Assembly: GCA_030605745.1 (NCBI GenBank)
Contig: JAUWHT010000330.1
Location: forward strand, 1 to 38,491
DNA length: 38,491 bases
Direction: 5' to 3'
DNA from: Pirellulales bacterium
GTDB lineage: Bacteria; Planctomycetota; Planctomycetia; Pirellulales; Thermoguttaceae
The translations under genes and the position numbers were made by a program. Shown here in pieces: positions 1,779 to 31,094 of the stretch. The notes under the pieces are model-generated. The model worked only from the letters and a program-made list of their open reading frames with translations, made no database searches and was not told the origin of the DNA. Position 1 is the first letter of the stretch. Every line of letters starts with the position of its first letter.

Positions 1779-1851
1779 GCCCCCGTAGCTCAGGGGATAG
1801 AGCACTGGTTTCCTAAACCAGTTGTCGCAGGTTCGATTCCTGCCGGGGGTA
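1779..1851 (+). tRNA. tRNA-Arg (anticodon CCT)
   Basis: 73-nt cloverleaf read by hand. Acceptor stem GCCCCCG/CGGGGGT, D-arm GCTC-AGGGGATA-GAGC, anticodon stem CTGGT/ACCAG with loop TTCCTAA, variable loop TTGTC, T-arm GCAGG-TTCGATT-CCTGC, discriminator A. No CCA is encoded. Confidence 0.9.
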
Positions 1852-2226: not shown

Positions 2227-4221
2227 TTAATTCGTTTGGTTGCGGTCGCATGCCAGGTATTCCGGACCGGGTGGCCCCGGGCGGGAAACCGCCCGGGGCC
2301 ACCCGGTCCGGAATTTCAGCGTCTTTTCCGGGTTTGAGATCAGTCGCTCGATGAGCACATCAGTGTACCACGGCTTGGAACTCGGTCGCAGGCGCGCGAT
2401 GCGCCAAAGCCAGTCGGACACGATCCCCGCCTCGCGGCGACCGATAGTGCGGATTTTCAACGTGCGCCCAATGCGGGCGAAATCGGCCAGGCGGCAAGCG
2501 AACGCATCTTCGCTGTCGGCAATCTTGCCGTTTACCAAGTTGCGCTCGTTGAGGTCGGCGAAGAGCACGCAGAACTTCTCCGCTCGCACCCGGTTGAGCA
2601 CTTCGTGATTGTCCGCCACTGCCGCCTCGGCCTCCGCAAAAAGCCCCAACGCTTTTTGCGAGAACTTGGCCGTTACCACCCCAGGATTAGCGCCCTCGCA
2701 CATCTGGTGTATGTTCCGCTGCTCGATTTCTTGGTGGAAAAAGTCGAAATACTCTCTCATCTGCGGCGCGGCCGCCCCGTAGTAGACCCCCATGAACTCG
2801 TCGATTAGCGCCTCGACGTCCGCCTTGGGATCCCACAACAGTTGGCTATGCACGAAAACAAACAGGTGGCGAAAGTTAGTGGGAACGCTACTGTAAGGAG
2901 GGAAGTCAGAGGAACCGTGACCATACCAGATACCCCGGATGCCGTTTTGGGCGTAGAAGTCCAGCTTCCGCTTCATGGCGTAGAAGCTGCCGAATGGCTC
3001 GTAGTATATCTTGTATCCGCGCGGATAGTCGAAGATGTACATGTTTCTCGGGCACTTGGCGATCCAGCCCTTGAGGTCCTCGAAGCCCTGCTTGTTCTTT
3101 TCGCACGTGAGGTCGTGGCTCTGGCAAGCCACGCGGTGTGGATAGGGGCAGAACTGAACCATCACGTTCGGCTCCGGCATGACTCTCTGGGGAGGCGGCG
3201 ACGTGGCCTTGGTGTAGGCGAGCGTGAGGATACGTTTGTCGGGATACTTTGCCGCGACGGCCCGAGCGACCTCGTTCACGTAGTCCAGCAGGCGGTCGGT
3301 CATCTCAACGCCGGGCACGGCGTCCATGGCCTTGCACTTTTCGCACTCACACCACGCACGGCCATCGCCTTGCGACACGCCGAAGAACGTGCGATCCGGT
3401 TGCTTCTCGATCAGCTCCAGTATGCGCTGGGTGGAAATCCTGCGGACCTCCGGATTCGACAGACAGAGGTGTACGTCAAACCTCTTTCGCTTGGGATCGC
3501 GATGAAGTCGTTTCCCATCTTTCTGCAAAGCGAAGTACTCGGGGTGGTCATGGCTGAACTTGTCGAACGGGAGCAGGTACGCCGCGCTGTGAAGCAGGCT
3601 TCCGCGCTCGCCGATCTCCCCGGGGTTGCCCATATCGTCCCTGGGCGTGTGGCCGAGCTTCAAATTGCCGGTGAGACAGCGAAACTCGTAGGACGGCTTT
3701 GCCCGAAGCTCGCAGTTGGGGATCACCAGCTTGCAGAGCTTCGGGACGATCTCGCAGTGCGGCGAGTAGAACTTAACACCCAGATGTCTCAGCAGTGCAT
3801 AGGCGCCGTAGGCCGTGCCAAGGTCGCGTGCACCGCAGATACCCGCTCTGCCCCCGGCAACACGAACCACATAGCCGTCGCGGCCGACTGCTTCCAACTC
3901 CTCTGCTGATATCAGGCCTGCCTGGCGCGCCAGACCGCCTACCGCGATAACGCCCGTTGGAACCTGTCCTCCCGTAACCTCGGTCCGCTTGAGCTTCTTC
4001 CCGGAGATTCGCTCCAGATACGCCACGAGTTCATCGGCGGCCAGCTTTTCCCTGGCGGTATGGTTTGGTCCCAGGGCCACGGCCGTGACCATGACGTCGG
4101 GTTCAATGAAGACCGCCGCCACGACGTCCTCCGAGCGGGCGGACACTTCTTTCTGTTCCGCAAAAACCAGGACGGACACGCTGCAAGTTGCCAAGAACGA
4201 TAAACACAAGAGCTTTTTCAC
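2227..4221 (-). CDS. secreted DUF4838-like protein (putative glycoside-hydrolase-related)
   Basis: The long ORF (track 2227..4305) carries motifs I associate with DUF4838: CLSNPEV, GDGRAWCECEKCKA, ILTLAYT. The preferred start is GTG 4221-4219, which has GGAGG (4233-4229) 7 nt upstream and yields the signal peptide MKKLLCLSFLATCSVSVLVFA. Confidence 0.6.
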   Translation of the reverse strand: MKKLLCLSFLATCSVSVLVFAEQKEVSARSEDVVAAVFIEPDVMVTAVALGPNHTAREKLAADELVAYLERISGKKLKRTEVTGGQVPTGVIAVGGLARQAGLISAEELEAVGRDGYVVRVAGGRAGICGARDLGTAYGAYALLRHLGVKFYSPHCEIVPKLCKLVIPNCELRAKPSYEFRCLTGNLKLGHTPRDDMGNPGEIGERGSLLHSAAYLLPFDKFSHDHPEYFALQKDGKRLHRDPKRKRFDVHLCLSNPEVRRISTQRILELIEKQPDRTFFGVSQGDGRAWCECEKCKAMDAVPGVEMTDRLLDYVNEVARAVAAKYPDKRILTLAYTKATSPPPQRVMPEPNVMVQFCPYPHRVACQSHDLTCEKNKQGFEDLKGWIAKCPRNMYIFDYPRGYKIYYEPFGSFYAMKRKLDFYAQNGIRGIWYGHGSSDFPPYSSVPTNFRHLFVFVHSQLLWDPKADVEALIDEFMGVYYGAAAPQMREYFDFFHQEIEQRNIHQMCEGANPGVVTAKFSQKALGLFAEAEAAVADNHEVLNRVRAEKFCVLFADLNERNLVNGKIADSEDAFACRLADFARIGRTLKIRTIGRREAGIVSDWLWRIARLRPSSKPWYTDVLIERLISNPEKTLKFRTGWPRAVSRPGPPGPEYLACDRNQTN

Positions 4222-4276
4222 GGCTCGACCTCCATCGGAGTTTTTGGGCCCTTTGGTATGACCATTGTACATGGCT

Positions 4277-4305
4277 AACATACACGAAACACACCTGAAG
4301 TACAA
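4277..4305 (-). promoter_or_regulatory. candidate sigma70-type promoter of the DUF4838 gene
   Basis: On the minus strand: TTGTAC (4305-4300), 17-nt spacer, TATGTT (4282-4277). It lies about 55 nt upstream of the GTG start. Confidence 0.3.
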
Positions 4306-4340
4306 CCGGCCAGTGAAACAGAAACCTCATTGCCAGAAAC

Positions 4341-4370
4341 GGTATTCCGTGGTATTCCGGGGGTATTCCG
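4341..4370. promoter_or_regulatory. three direct repeats of GGTATTCCG at helical phasing (putative regulator binding sites)
   Basis: Copies at 4341-4349, 4351-4359 and 4362-4370, with spacings of 10 and 11 bp. They lie 36-65 bp upstream of the candidate -35 of the DUF4838 gene. Confidence 0.4.
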
Positions 4371-4629
4371 GAGACACAACACTAATTTTCATTGGTTCGG
4401 GGACGGCCTAGCTTTGGGGGGCGTAGGTTGCGGCCGGCGATTTTATCGAGCTTGTCGATGAATCGCTACCCGCCGAGCGGGCGGCCCGTTCACTGGTGAC
4501 GACGAAGCAACTCCTGTTGTTTTTCGTCCGTTGGATCTCTCGCCAGTCTTGCCATGCCACCATTGTGCCGACAACCCAAAAGGCGTCAAGAGAAATTAGG
4601 TATTGTGTCCCCGGAATTCCCTTTCTCGC

Positions 4630-4965
4630 TCAAAGCCGGAACTCCTCGTTCCACATCTTTCGCACGAGACTCAAATCTTCGTTTGACAGCTTACCAATAC
4701 GGACTTTGAGAAGACTTTTCTCGATGGTCACAACGCGTGAAAGCCTTATAGTGGACGGCTTCTCTAACCCGGTTTCTTGCCACTTGCTGAGCGCCAAATC
4801 CAAGAAGCCTTGATGAGGAACAGACGTGATGCGGCAGACCAGACAATCCGAACCCAAGTCCACCAAAACGAGAACGGGTCTGGCTTTCGCTCCGCGTCCA
4901 GACGTGAAAGGGAAGATGCAGACATATACCTCCCCGAATTCAACGATACTTGTCATAGACTGCAT
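4630..4965 (-). CDS. mazF: type II toxin, PemK/MazF family
   Basis: The sequence ...SIVEFGEVYVCIFPFTSGRGAKARPVLVLVDLGSDCLVCRITSV...STIRLSRVVTIEKSLLKVRIGKLSNEDL follows the MazF/PemK pattern. The start is ATG 4965 or ATG 4956; the longer track ORF (to 5088) overlaps the antitoxin and is unlikely. The gene overlaps the antitoxin stop. Confidence 0.8.
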   Translation of the reverse strand: MQSMTSIVEFGEVYVCIFPFTSGRGAKARPVLVLVDLGSDCLVCRITSVPHQGFLDLALSKWQETGLEKPSTIRLSRVVTIEKSLLKVRIGKLSNEDLSLVRKMWNEEFRL

Positions 4966-5173
4966 CTTCCTCCGAGTCATCGCTGAGAAATTGGTCATAT
5001 GCCGCCTTTCGCCAGGCGACATCCTCCGAATCCATGTCCACGCAGACCAGAACCGTTGCCTTTCCCTTCTGCGGCAACACAGACGCAATTTCCGGCGGTA
5101 TGCTCAGAGTCTGGTTTCCCGACAACTCAGTCTCGAATTCTACTGTCTTCATAACATCAATCATCTTTCCCAA
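4940..5173 (-). CDS. mazE: AbrB/MazE-type antitoxin
   Basis: 77 aa. The N-terminal part is SpoVT/AbrB-like (TVEFETELSGNQTLSIPPEIASVL) and the C-terminal tail is acidic. It lies immediately upstream of, and overlaps, the MazF-family gene. Confidence 0.7.
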   Translation of the reverse strand: MGKMIDVMKTVEFETELSGNQTLSIPPEIASVLPQKGKATVLVCVDMDSEDVAWRKAAYDQFLSDDSEEDAVYDKYR

Positions 5174-5220
5174 AAAAGTCTAATATCTGGGGCCACATAA
5201 AACCCCAAACAACGATTCGC

Positions 5221-5249
5221 AGTATAGTATCCCTGTGGCATGTTGTCAA
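5221..5249 (-). promoter_or_regulatory. near-consensus sigma70-type promoter of mazEF
   Basis: On the minus strand: TTGACA (5249-5244), 17-nt spacer, TATACT (5226-5221). It lies about 50 nt upstream of the mazE start. Confidence 0.55.
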
Positions 5250-5300
5250 CAGCCGGGTAGTTCCCGCTGGCATTCGGTTGCGGGAGAGGAAGTTCCGGCA

Positions 5301-28528: not shown

Positions 28529-28661
28529 TAAACACGGCGCTGTCAGGGTTTGCTATCTTGCTGTACAATAGGAGAAGCAGGAGACCTGATCGATATCGAA
28601 ACGGCGATATGTCACGCCGAAGAAATCAGTGTAGGATAACCTCAACGGGAGGACATGCGTG

Positions 28662-29000
28662 ATGGCTTCCGAGACACCGACGATCAAGACCGAGTATGCC
28701 CATATTGTTTGCACGCCGGGGATTGTGGGCAAGGAGGCGCGGATTGCTGGCCACCGTATCCGCGTGCGCGACATTGTTGCGGCACGTGACTTGGGAGGCC
28801 TCAGTCCCGAGGAAATCGCGGCCAGCGTCTACCCCAATCTCACACTGGCACAGGTATACGCGGCACTGGCGTACTACGAAGATCACCGCAGCGAGATCGA
28901 CCGTGCATTCGAGGATGACGCCGAGGCGGTTGAGGATTTCAGTCGTCGCCACCCGGATCTGGTGCGCGATCTGCAACCTGATAAGGAATTGGATAGTTGA
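28662..29000 (+). CDS. DUF433-domain protein (antitoxin-like small DNA-binding protein)
   Basis: IVCTPGIVGKEARIAGHRIRVRDIVAARDLGGLSPEEIAASVYPNLTLAQVYAALAYY matches the DUF433 pattern. GGGAGGA lies 8 nt upstream of ATG 28662; GTG 28659 is also possible. Confidence 0.65.
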   Translation: MASETPTIKTEYAHIVCTPGIVGKEARIAGHRIRVRDIVAARDLGGLSPEEIAASVYPNLTLAQVYAALAYYEDHRSEIDRAFEDDAEAVEDFSRRHPDLVRDLQPDKELDS

Positions 29001-29008
29001 GGTGGAAA

Positions 29009-29323
29009 ATGATTGGCGATAATGTGCTCAAGCAGATCAAGTCGATGCTGGAGGCTGCCTTCGTGGACCGTCTGCGAGGCGTGGTGTTGTACGGTTCGGA
29101 GGTTCGCGGTGAGGCCGATCTTGATAGCGACATCGATCTGCTTGTCCTGCTGACCGGACCAGTGAACGAAGGCGAAGATTCCTGGACGTGTATTCGCGCT
29201 TTGTACCCGCTCGTGCTTGAATTAGAGCGGCCGATCCACGCCAAGCCCACCGACATTAGCGTGTACGAGGCACAGGAATATCCGCTATACTGCAACGCTA
29301 AACGGGAAGGAATCCTGGTGTGA
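29009..29323 (+). CDS. minimal nucleotidyltransferase (MNT/MntA-like antitoxin)
   Basis: LYGSEVRGEADLDSDIDLLVLL is the G-S-x(n)-D-x-D nucleotidyltransferase motif. ATG 29009 lies just after GAGGTGGA. The stop overlaps the start of the HEPN gene (GTGA). Confidence 0.8.
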   Translation: MIGDNVLKQIKSMLEAAFVDRLRGVVLYGSEVRGEADLDSDIDLLVLLTGPVNEGEDSWTCIRALYPLVLELERPIHAKPTDISVYEAQEYPLYCNAKREGILV

Positions 29324-29733
29324 AAGCACGAGTTGGAGAGTTGTGGAACCGCGCCAAGAAGGCCATTGCTGTAGCTAGAGCTACCCTCTCACTTGATTCT
29401 GATTCGGCCGCGTCAAGGGCCTATTATGCCGCGTTCTATGCGGTGTCTGCAAGATTCGCATTGGAGGGCCGGTCATTCCGGAGACACTCGGGCGTCGAAG
29501 CAGCCGTACATCGTGACTTGGTCAAAACGGGCATCTGGTCAGTGCAACTCGGCGAGGGCTATTCACGGTTGGCCGAGGTCCGCAGCATCGGCGACTACGG
29601 CGAAGCGGAACACGTTTCTGAGAAGCACGCCGCCGAAGCCATCGAAATTGCGACCGAAATCCTCAACACCGTCGCTCGCGAACACTCCGATATATTTGCT
29701 ACGCCATCCGCAACCGGCGGTTCGGGGGATTGA
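29320..29733 (+). CDS. HEPN-domain protein (HepT-like toxin partner of MNT)
   Basis: SRAYYAAFYAVSARFALEGRSFRRHSGVEAAVHRDLVKTG...EVRSIGDYGE...EKHAAEAIEIA follows the helical HEPN pattern with the R-x4-DY motif. It forms a 4-nt overlap pair with the MNT gene. Confidence 0.75.
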   Translation: MKARVGELWNRAKKAIAVARATLSLDSDSAASRAYYAAFYAVSARFALEGRSFRRHSGVEAAVHRDLVKTGIWSVQLGEGYSRLAEVRSIGDYGEAEHVSEKHAAEAIEIATEILNTVAREHSDIFATPSATGGSGD

Positions 29734-29885: not shown

Positions 29886-31094
29886 TTGGCGCTGCTAACT
29901 TGGCCGGCGCAACTTGTTGCACCAATATTCAAATGTGTGCCCAATTCACGATCTGTCACCGTGGCAAGAAGAAGAGGAAACCGAACCGGTCACCCACGTC
30001 ATCCGGGGCGAATTGCAAAGACAGAAACTCAGCTCCTGGCTGAACTCGAAGACCACCTTTTTCTCTTGCGAGACCAATGGCACAGTCTGAGGAGAGACCC
30101 TGTGCACATCAAAGTAATTGCAGCCGAACTTCGTGTTCTCCTCTGCCTTTCGGGTGGTACTGAGGGACTGCTTTGGAGACTCGCGGACCGTTTGGGAGTA
30201 TCCGATGCTATTGAAGTGTACTCACACGGTGGTGTTGATCCAGACCATCCACTGGCGAAAGGACTGCGACTCGCTGTGACTTTTCTTCAGCGTCCCGGTG
30301 CCTTTGCTCATCCTGCGTTTGCAAAGCTGTCTCCGGACAAGGTCTCCAGGCTCAGGGATGTGGTTAAACGGGACGAAGCGGTCTACACGCTCGGAAGAAG
30401 CTTCACTCATGAGCAGATCATCCGCAAGATCGCCGAGCAAATCGGCACCGCTCACGCCGACGACGGCATCGAGCCGGGGCTTGCCACGTTGAACGAGCTA
30501 TTGATTTATGGGCGTTCAGTATACTTCCCAATACTCGCATTCCTTGCTGAGGCTACTTTGGAGGTCGGGGAACGTGTGCTGTACTTTGCGGGTACGTCCG
30601 GAAAATACCAAAGGCGACGTTATAGCCCGCCGGTAAGCATCGTAGTACATCTTACTCTTCGTGAAATCCCGCTTGGACGTGTAGCGATTGTCACGTTCCA
30701 GTCGCACACGGCGGCAGTCAAAGTCCAGGTCTTGATTAGCCCTCGGACGTTTGTCTTCATAGTGGGCAAAGCAGCGAAAAGACCGACAACGGTCTCCGTT
30801 CCATTCCCGTCTGACTGGCAGGAGGGAGGAAACGTTGCATCTTGTCTTGTGTATGACCATCGGTCGAAGCGACTGCAAGCGATGGGACCAAATATCGGCG
30901 GAGAGTCCATTGAAGGATGTGATCTGGGCTACGTTCACATCGCAGAGTTTTCGCACCCGCAGATGGACCCAGCACATGAACCGTACGCACTCGTGCAAGG
31001 CATCCATACTCACGAGCATTTGTTCACACCGAGCGAGTTCGCCCAACTTCTGCAAAAGAAGCGGCTCGCCGCCAGCAGCGACTCAGACGTCTAA
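29886..31094 (+). CDS. orphan hypothetical protein (377-402 aa), low GC
   Basis: This is the only long ORF in 29.8-31.1 kb. There is no in-frame ATG near the 5' end; candidate starts are TTG 29886, GTG 29937 and GTG 29961. Sampled GC is 28-32 per 60 nt, against 40-42 per 60 nt in the flanking uppS and murC. I recognise no signal peptide, TM segment or Walker A motif. The N-terminal half looks helical and the C-terminal half beta-rich. Confidence 0.6.
   Translation: MALLTWPAQLVAPIFKCVPNSRSVTVARRRGNRTGHPRHPGRIAKTETQLLAELEDHLFLLRDQWHSLRRDPVHIKVIAAELRVLLCLSGGTEGLLWRLADRLGVSDAIEVYSHGGVDPDHPLAKGLRLAVTFLQRPGAFAHPAFAKLSPDKVSRLRDVVKRDEAVYTLGRSFTHEQIIRKIAEQIGTAHADDGIEPGLATLNELLIYGRSVYFPILAFLAEATLEVGERVLYFAGTSGKYQRRRYSPPVSIVVHLTLREIPLGRVAIVTFQSHTAAVKVQVLISPRTFVFIVGKAAKRPTTVSVPFPSDWQEGGNVASCLVYDHRSKRLQAMGPNIGGESIEGCDLGYVHIAEFSHPQMDPAHEPYALVQGIHTHEHLFTPSEFAQLLQKKRLAASSDSDV

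Follow-up and report, generated by a model that had tools for sequence, protein, structure and literature searches.

What does a low-GC open reading frame (ORF) encode when it stands directly behind an MNT nucleotidyltransferase/HEPN gene pair in an otherwise housekeeping segment of a Pirellulales bacterium? The ORF in question (29886..31094, plus strand) lies on contig JAUWHT010000330.1 of assembly GCA_030605745.1 (Planctomycetota; Thermoguttaceae), of which positions 1 to 38,491 were analysed; this whole stretch of 38,491 nucleotides is called the window. An initial annotation, made from the letters of the window, had described the ORF as an orphan two-domain protein and had speculated on a role as defence-related sensor or effector. 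We find that it belongs to a protein family undescribed until now, whose conserved functional core is an N-terminal alpha/beta domain (N-domain), joined in the window protein to a LamG-type C-terminal domain (C-domain). The reading that we favour, tentatively, is that the family gene is a self-contained mobile conflict gene, which combines a new putative enzymatic effector domain with a LamG recognition module.

The gene and its conserved N-terminal domain

The ORF is present in the ORF list at its annotated extent of 402 codons, open from TTG 29886. The three start candidates that had been named (TTG 29886, GTG 29937 and GTG 29961) all exist, and the earliest in-frame ATG is found at 30882. 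The automatic gene call on record begins at GTG 30102, with GAGGAG 9-14 nt upstream of it, and gives a protein of 330 aa (P0001). That start would cut off helix 1, which is conserved in all homologues and carries K20, D/E30 and H32, all three of them kept in the window sequence; the database protein P0001 is therefore probably truncated at its N-terminus, by 47 residues. Because the N-termini of the homologues align 10-14 residues downstream of GTG 29961, the alignment favours this codon as the real start, which makes the most likely product of the protein-coding gene (29961..31094, plus strand) a protein of 377 aa. Residue numbers are counted from GTG 29961 throughout.

The composition of the gene sets it apart from its surroundings. 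Its GC content is 0.542, compared with 0.603 for the whole window. The value is low, as the initial annotation stated, but it is not the lowest in the window: the stretch 4000-5300 is lower (0.515), and the ORF holds the 17th lowest-GC rank among 746 sliding windows. The GC content at third codon positions (GC3) is 0.54, against 0.75-0.83 in purA, uppS, murC, murB and ftsQ, and the codon composition is thus foreign relative to the flanking genes; the three genes immediately upstream are intermediate (0.60-0.67). The ratio of non-synonymous to synonymous substitution rates (dN/dS), calculated for three close homologue pairs, is 0.13-0.24 in the N-domain and 0.24-0.44 in the C-domain, which argues that both domains are under purifying selection and that the C-domain is the less constrained of the two. 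The ORF is a real gene under selection.

The search for familiar motifs in the window protein confirmed the absence of a signal peptide, of a transmembrane segment (maximum Kyte-Doolittle value of 1.45 over 19 residues) and of a Walker A motif, and HExxH was not found either. No catalytic motif was recognised in it by the Pfam, NCBIfam and PADLOC scans or by the motif checks.

The AlphaFold2 model of the full protein, built on an alignment of 90 sequences, has a predicted local distance difference test score (pLDDT) of 92 and a predicted template-modelling score (pTM) of 0.90, and it bears out the two-domain build that had been proposed. The N-domain (residues about 17-215; 30009..30605, plus strand) is modelled with a pLDDT of about 90-98, and with a pLDDT of 90 when taken alone. 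This part of the protein had been described as helical. It is indeed a distinct domain, but the predicted fold is alpha/beta: a small sheet, with strands at residues 83-88, 104-106, 127-130, 139-143 and 146-149, is surrounded by two long N-terminal helices and one long C-terminal helix. Comparison of the N-domain model with the PDB by Foldseek revealed no relative among solved structures (best expectation value, E, of 2.3), and a PDB sequence search with the family profiles returned nothing significant. Scans of the ORF against Pfam, NCBIfam and PADLOC gave no match for the N-domain, and 90 members of the family are likewise without a Pfam or NCBIfam family for it.

Conservation was counted over 275 near-complete N-domains from both subfamilies, the two-domain one and the stand-alone one described below. 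The conserved core consists of K20, D/E30, H32, K51, R58, C62, Q160, G162 and H165. Two residues, R58 (codon 30132..30134, plus strand) and H165 (codon 30453..30455, plus strand), are invariant in 275 of 275 domains, and G162 is nearly so (99.6%). An acidic residue occupies position 30 in 98%, a lysine or arginine is found at positions 20 and 51 in 96-97%, and Q160 (94%), E166 (93%), C62 (92%) and H32 (91%) follow. Mean pairwise identity is 50% for the N-domain versus 20% for the C-domain. The N-domain is the conserved functional core of the family. Several known types of active site were considered for it. A cysteine-protease or zinc-site reading is weakened by the replacement of C62 and of H32 in 8-9% of members each, and readings as an HD domain, a RES domain or an HExxH enzyme were rejected, as Foldseek gave no such match and the motifs are absent.

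The HEPN RNases of abortive-infection and toxin systems (AbiV, HepT) serve as a provisional analogy for the possible mode of action of the N-domain. They are helix-rich effectors of about 150-200 aa, they occur in toxin-antitoxin (TA) or defence islets, and they have a conserved Arg and His. The N-domain is, however, not a member of that group. The HEPN motif Rx4-6H is not conserved in the family, in which R58 and H165 are 107 residues apart and lie on different elements; the strings of this form in the window protein (in the non-conserved N-terminal tail, RRDPVH and RPGAFAH) are not conserved in the alignments. While HEPN proteins are four-helix bundles, the N-domain has a beta-sheet subdomain, and the only HEPN structure listed by Foldseek, AbiV (9bj5), came with an E of 9.8, a probability of 0.02 and a template-modelling score of 0.15-0.21.

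The one library link of the N-domain is to PHROG 7805, a phage family with no known function, whose profile of 218 positions matches the stand-alone N-domain in length. PHROG 7805 is the top or the only PHROG for 65 of the 90 members, colinear over profile positions of about 1-170 (best E 3.9e-6), and the window protein gives a weak match to positions 38-169 of 218 (E 0.027). Remote homology is likely on these profile matches. As PHROG 7805 has no known function, the link says nothing on mechanism.

LamG as a putative exchangeable module

The C-terminal part had been proposed to be a jelly-roll or LamG/ConA-like sandwich. The predicted strands and the Foldseek matches (E about 1e-5) confirm this assignment at the level of the fold. 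Nine strands, with a pLDDT above 90, lie between residues 225 and 351 (30633..31013, plus strand) and form the beta-sandwich, which is followed by a C-terminal helix (residues 357-376; 31029..31088, plus strand). Foldseek of the full model recovers the LamG domain only. With the C-domain it finds pentraxins (3flp, PTX3) and the N-subdomain of the botulinum and tetanus toxin Hc (E 7e-6 to 1e-4 over ~160 columns, probability 1.0), and phage LamG/ConA proteins, LamG tail proteins among them, as well. The sandwich shared with the LamG/ConA proteins covers the C-terminal 130-160 residues, at an identity of only 9-12%, and the window protein differs from these proteins in being apparently cytoplasmic and in its fusion to an N-domain that they lack. 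Pfam Laminin_G_3 (PF13385) has no match in the window protein at E up to 1; six of 90 relatives match it, at E of 0.023 or worse, and the best of them reaches 24.0 bits against a cut-off of 27.6. The C-domain is the only part of the protein assignable to a known superfamily (LamG/ConA-like), by its modelled fold and below the curated sequence threshold.

LamG is present in some members of the family, absent from others and also swapped, and we read it as an exchangeable module; four lines of evidence speak for this. Two types of C-domain exist, the second of which has the 'TW..E..FYL.G..V' strand pair typical of LamG and weak Laminin_G_3 matches. Stand-alone N-domains occur, and in these relatives LamG is dispensable. 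P0388, a relative of the stand-alone type, is fused to LamG (precomputed PF13385 match). The fourth is a LamG that stands by itself: in locus L001, directly downstream of a full-length family gene, an ORF of 107 aa (1496-1819) encodes a stand-alone LamG of the other C-domain type (family hidden Markov model, E 2.8e-13). The same locus is found in L002, L003 and L016, and the small ORF looks like an orphan specificity cassette.

Two metagenomic proteins, both cut by contig ends, add to the variety of architectures. P0136, in which LamG precedes an N-domain within a single ORF, looks like a tandem or fused copy, and P0216 has a signal or transmembrane segment and an unknown beta-rich region before its N-domain.

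LamG domains are typically binding modules. The protein might then bind or regulate without being an enzyme, for instance as an adaptor for a ligand or glycan; its conserved polar residues would make up a binding site or a metal site, and it would have no role in conflict. In agreement with this, no catalytic motif was recognised, and one member has a metal-binding tail of SEC-C type. That member, P0092 of Methylomonas koyamae, is on record as 'YecA family protein' and, like the window protein, consists of an N-domain and a LamG-type C-domain. Its name comes only from the C-terminal SEC-C motif (PF02810), CQCGSRKRYKACCG, which was found in P0092 alone among 90 members (E 0.0017) and is absent from the window protein, which ends ...KKRLAASSDSDV. 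We consider this explanation unlikely. The N-domain by itself is the conserved unit and exists without LamG, and an invariant Arg/His pair with a conserved Lys and an acidic residue would be more typical of catalysis. A patchy, horizontally transferred gene in variable islets also argues against a core regulatory role.

Spread of the family and surroundings of its genes

The term 'orphan' in the initial annotation does not hold. A search with the single sequence retrieved 95 homologues, and searches with the family profile retrieved 248 clusters (90% identity) among 5.8 billion sequences and 407 representative clusters (50% identity) among 1.84 billion sequences. The two-domain build is common to ~250 clusters (90% identity), with members of 330-394 aa and none above about 394 aa. 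A stand-alone N-domain subfamily adds 234 further clusters of complete ORFs (197-235 aa), a few of which again carry LamG; it includes ETAA8_29510 of the planctomycete Anatilimnocola aggregata. No fusion to a known enzymatic domain was found among the members, and the only Pfam domain of the distant ones (P0216, P0136 and others) is LamG. All names on record are 'hypothetical', with the single exception of the 'YecA family protein', and Pfam appears on record only as stray single matches.

Reference genomes with the family belong to ANME-2 (anaerobic methanotrophic) Methanosarcinales, Anaerolineales, Sedimentisphaerales, Pirellulales/Planctomycetaceae, Kuenenia, Nitrospirales and Gemmatimonadota, and, within the Proteobacteria, to the Alpha-, Beta-, Gamma- and Deltaproteobacteria and to the Mariprofundaceae. 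The proteins of an ANME-2 archaeon (L014) and of a zetaproteobacterial member of the Mariprofundaceae (L026) are 68% identical, which indicates a recent gene transfer between archaea and bacteria. Judged from these sequences, the family is rare, patchy in its distribution and horizontally spread.

How far the neighbours of the gene bear on its function was examined over 35 distinct family loci, with an all-against-all BLAST of 211 neighbours (E 1e-5). No neighbour family is conserved across the 35 loci, and the sole recurrent clusters are MNT and HepT, with 3-4 members each. TA or defence genes stand within three ORFs of the family gene in 9 of the 35 loci: besides the window these are PIN/PhdYeFM in L004, MNT+HepT in L014, L015 and L034, RelE in L019, HicB in L030, DUF433 in L032 (two ORFs from the family gene) and TIR in L040. 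Transposase, integrase or intron genes are found within the same distance in five more, as transposases or integrases in L010, L012, L037 and L041 and as a group II intron maturase fragment in L001. This gives ~14 of 35 loci (~40%) with TA, defence or transposase genes. Restriction-modification of type I and of type IIG, AbiEii (two), ThsB and PbeA were also seen among the larger neighbours, as hits not assigned to particular loci. Two of the stand-alone relatives lie in TA islets, one beside Unstab_antitox and one among MqsA/RelE and Gp49/HTH_37. The family gene moves on its own, with a tendency to insert into variable islets rich in conflict genes.

The islet in the window is a block of four genes between uppS and murC. 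As had been annotated, the MNT and HEPN genes lie directly upstream of the family gene, and they are preceded by DUF433 (28659-29000, E 2.4e-15 in Pfam). The MNT nucleotidyltransferase gene runs from 28997 or 29009 to 29323 (NTP_transf_2, E 1.4e-7; PADLOC PDC-S09, 6.5e-23) and the HEPN gene from 29320 to 29733 (E 1e-13), all on the plus strand (28659..29733) and all outside the family. Overlaps of 4 nt, or a gap of 8 nt, couple these three genes tightly (translationally). The family gene follows after 228 nt and has 222 nt downstream of it. The surroundings are otherwise housekeeping (MutS, Ffh, UxaC, purA, murB, ftsQ, CsrA). A search for repeats at the islet boundaries gave only short ones at chance level. 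According to PMC2701414, DUF433 (COG2442) is an antitoxin associated with PIN and lacks any other conserved partner, and the DUF433-MNT-HEPN trio is therefore unusual.

This block could be read as a single operon, in which the family gene is the fourth member and works with the other three; its product might, for example, control the nucleotidyltransferase/HEPN pair as a sensor or accessory factor. The gene shares the strand of HEPN and lies 228 nt behind it, the interval between the two showed no site resembling a terminator or promoter, and the identical gene arrangement recurs in two further metagenome samples. MNT+HepT flank family genes in L014, L015 and L034 as well, and DUF433 is a neighbour in L032. 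The wider comparison makes an operon of this kind distinctly improbable, however. The MNT/HEPN-HepT pair occurs in only four of the 35 loci (the window, L014, L015 and L034), and it is upstream in the window and downstream elsewhere. L014 and L015 are related archaeal loci that may represent one event. In the closest full-length relatives, P0003 and P0004, the neighbours are unrelated (an S41 peptidase and an unannotated protein of 375 aa), and MNT/HEPN is lacking. MNT/HEPN pairs are, moreover, very abundant and mobile in their own right (Makarova 2009, PMC2701414). The adjacency is recurrent, not conserved. The same counts, four of 35 loci with the pair on either side, speak against a role of the family gene as a component of the type VII HepT/MntA module.

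A partner too divergent to be recognised is the basis of another explanation, by which the module has two genes and the protein is its toxin or its toxin-like growth inhibitor. The TA-rich islets would suit such a protein, and small unannotated ORFs are often adjacent to family genes, such as an ORF of 89 aa that overlaps the stop codon in L004 and ORFs of 65-128 aa in L052 and L053. But the BLAST comparison found no neighbour family common to the loci, and neither the 228-nt gap upstream nor the 222-nt gap downstream of the window gene contains a small ORF. We regard a two-gene module as improbable.

Several loci have metabolic neighbours only. Glycoside hydrolases and lyases often contain LamG/ConA domains, and one of 90 members shows a weak match to Glyco_hydro_16; the protein could then be a cytoplasmic carbohydrate-active or other metabolic enzyme with LamG as its substrate-binding module. 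We hold this to be very improbable: there is no signal peptide or transmembrane segment and no conserved metabolic neighbour, the family is rare, scattered over phyla and of foreign composition, and its stand-alone form dispenses with LamG altogether.

Two observations concern other parts of the window. An Rfam scan of the window had as its sole match a distant tRNA gene (1779-1851, plus strand; RF00005, 68.7 bits). The lowest-GC stretch (0.515) contains, within 4630-5173 on the minus strand, an ORF for a PemK/MazF-like toxin (PF02452, E 1.1e-10), which is overlapped from upstream by an ORF of 77 aa (4940-5173) that has no Pfam match and is a candidate antitoxin. This pair would be a second small TA islet in the same chromosomal segment.

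A putative single-gene conflict module

The favoured reading, that of a self-contained conflict gene, can now be set out in full. The protein would be a cytoplasmic two-domain protein whose gene has spread horizontally as a single gene. Its N-domain would be an enzyme with the active site at the invariant Arg58 and His165, surrounded by Lys20, Asp/Glu30, His32, Lys51, Cys62 and Gln160. We read the domain as an enzyme because an invariant Arg/His pair, accompanied by a conserved Lys and an acidic residue, typically marks a metal-independent hydrolytic centre like those of toxin RNases; such a centre, for example for phosphodiester cleavage as is common in TA and abortive-infection effectors, is the most likely form that the activity would take. 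The fast-diverging LamG would serve for recognition, as an exchangeable module by which the N-domain is targeted or gated, and the whole protein would act as a single-gene defence, abortive-infection or toxin-like module. In the window, the gene may have landed together with, or next to, DUF433-MNT-HEPN in the acquired islet between uppS and murC. The enzymatic activity, the division of labour between sensor and effector and the conflict role are what we infer from the structural model, the conservation and the neighbourhoods.

Mobile single genes that join a conserved effector to a variable binding domain are a well-known architecture among prokaryotic conflict proteins; here the effector domain is new to the libraries searched. 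Single-gene sensor-plus-effector defence proteins, as collected in PADLOC (including its PDC candidates), resemble the family in being stand-alone genes that spread horizontally into variable islets, and in joining a conserved putative effector to a fast-evolving binding domain. The family differs from them in that no PADLOC v2.0 model matches it. A literature search for LamG combined with defence or toxin-antitoxin found nothing relevant.

A number of findings weigh against a conflict gene of this kind. PADLOC-DB v2.0 has no match for the window protein at E up to 1, and among 20 diverse relatives no PADLOC family was matched by more than one of the 20, so the models recognise neither the window protein nor, consistently, its relatives. 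More than half of the loci have housekeeping or unannotated neighbours only, and the neighbourhood bias is a qualitative one, taken from uncontrolled raw counts. The particular neighbourhood with MNT/HEPN is missing from the closest relatives. No relative of the family was found in viruses, phages or plasmids, by two IMG/VR scans that included a pattern search, by tblastn of three family members against GenBank phages (E up to 10 for two of them) or by tblastn against the PLSDB plasmids. Within the N-domain, C62 and H32 are each replaced in 8-9% of members, and position 166 (30456-30458) is Ala in the window protein and Ala, Ser or Ile in its nearest relatives, against Glu in 93% of the family. 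The conserved residues might serve structure or ligand binding instead of catalysis.

The change at position 166, right after the invariant His165, is of interest in itself: it may reflect a clade-specific change of activity, or else Glu166 is not catalytic.

Against these points stand the mobility of the gene, its foreign codons and the TA, defence or transposase genes of ~14 of the 35 loci, and a conflict or defence role for the family is plausible. The defence sensor or effector of the initial annotation gains circumstantial support from these features, from the patchy distribution, from the lack of a conserved partner and from the two stand-alone relatives in TA islets; at odds with it are the MNT/HEPN pair, found in only four of the 35 loci, and the missing PADLOC match. 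A bolder proposal goes further. The N-domain would be a new enzymatic fold, centred on Arg58 and His165, and the effector of an unrecognised single-gene system against phages or mobile elements that is common to archaea and bacteria; LamG would provide specificity or sensing, and the stand-alone form would have remote phage relatives in PHROG 7805. We regard this version as doubtful.

If the conflict reading fails, the family joins the many conserved hypothetical proteins, in its case with a LamG domain that can be recognised. The core N-domain has no counterpart in Pfam, NCBIfam, PADLOC or the PDB, and the confident model and the two invariant residues make the conflict idea cheaply testable. 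If the idea is true, these genes would constitute a new protein family of ~480 clusters (90% identity) across ANME archaea, Planctomycetes, Chloroflexi, Nitrospirae and Proteobacteria, would enlarge the known set of prokaryotic conflict systems by a new effector fold, and would reveal modular LamG swapping in environmental lineages that are beyond the reach of E. coli-centred defence screens.

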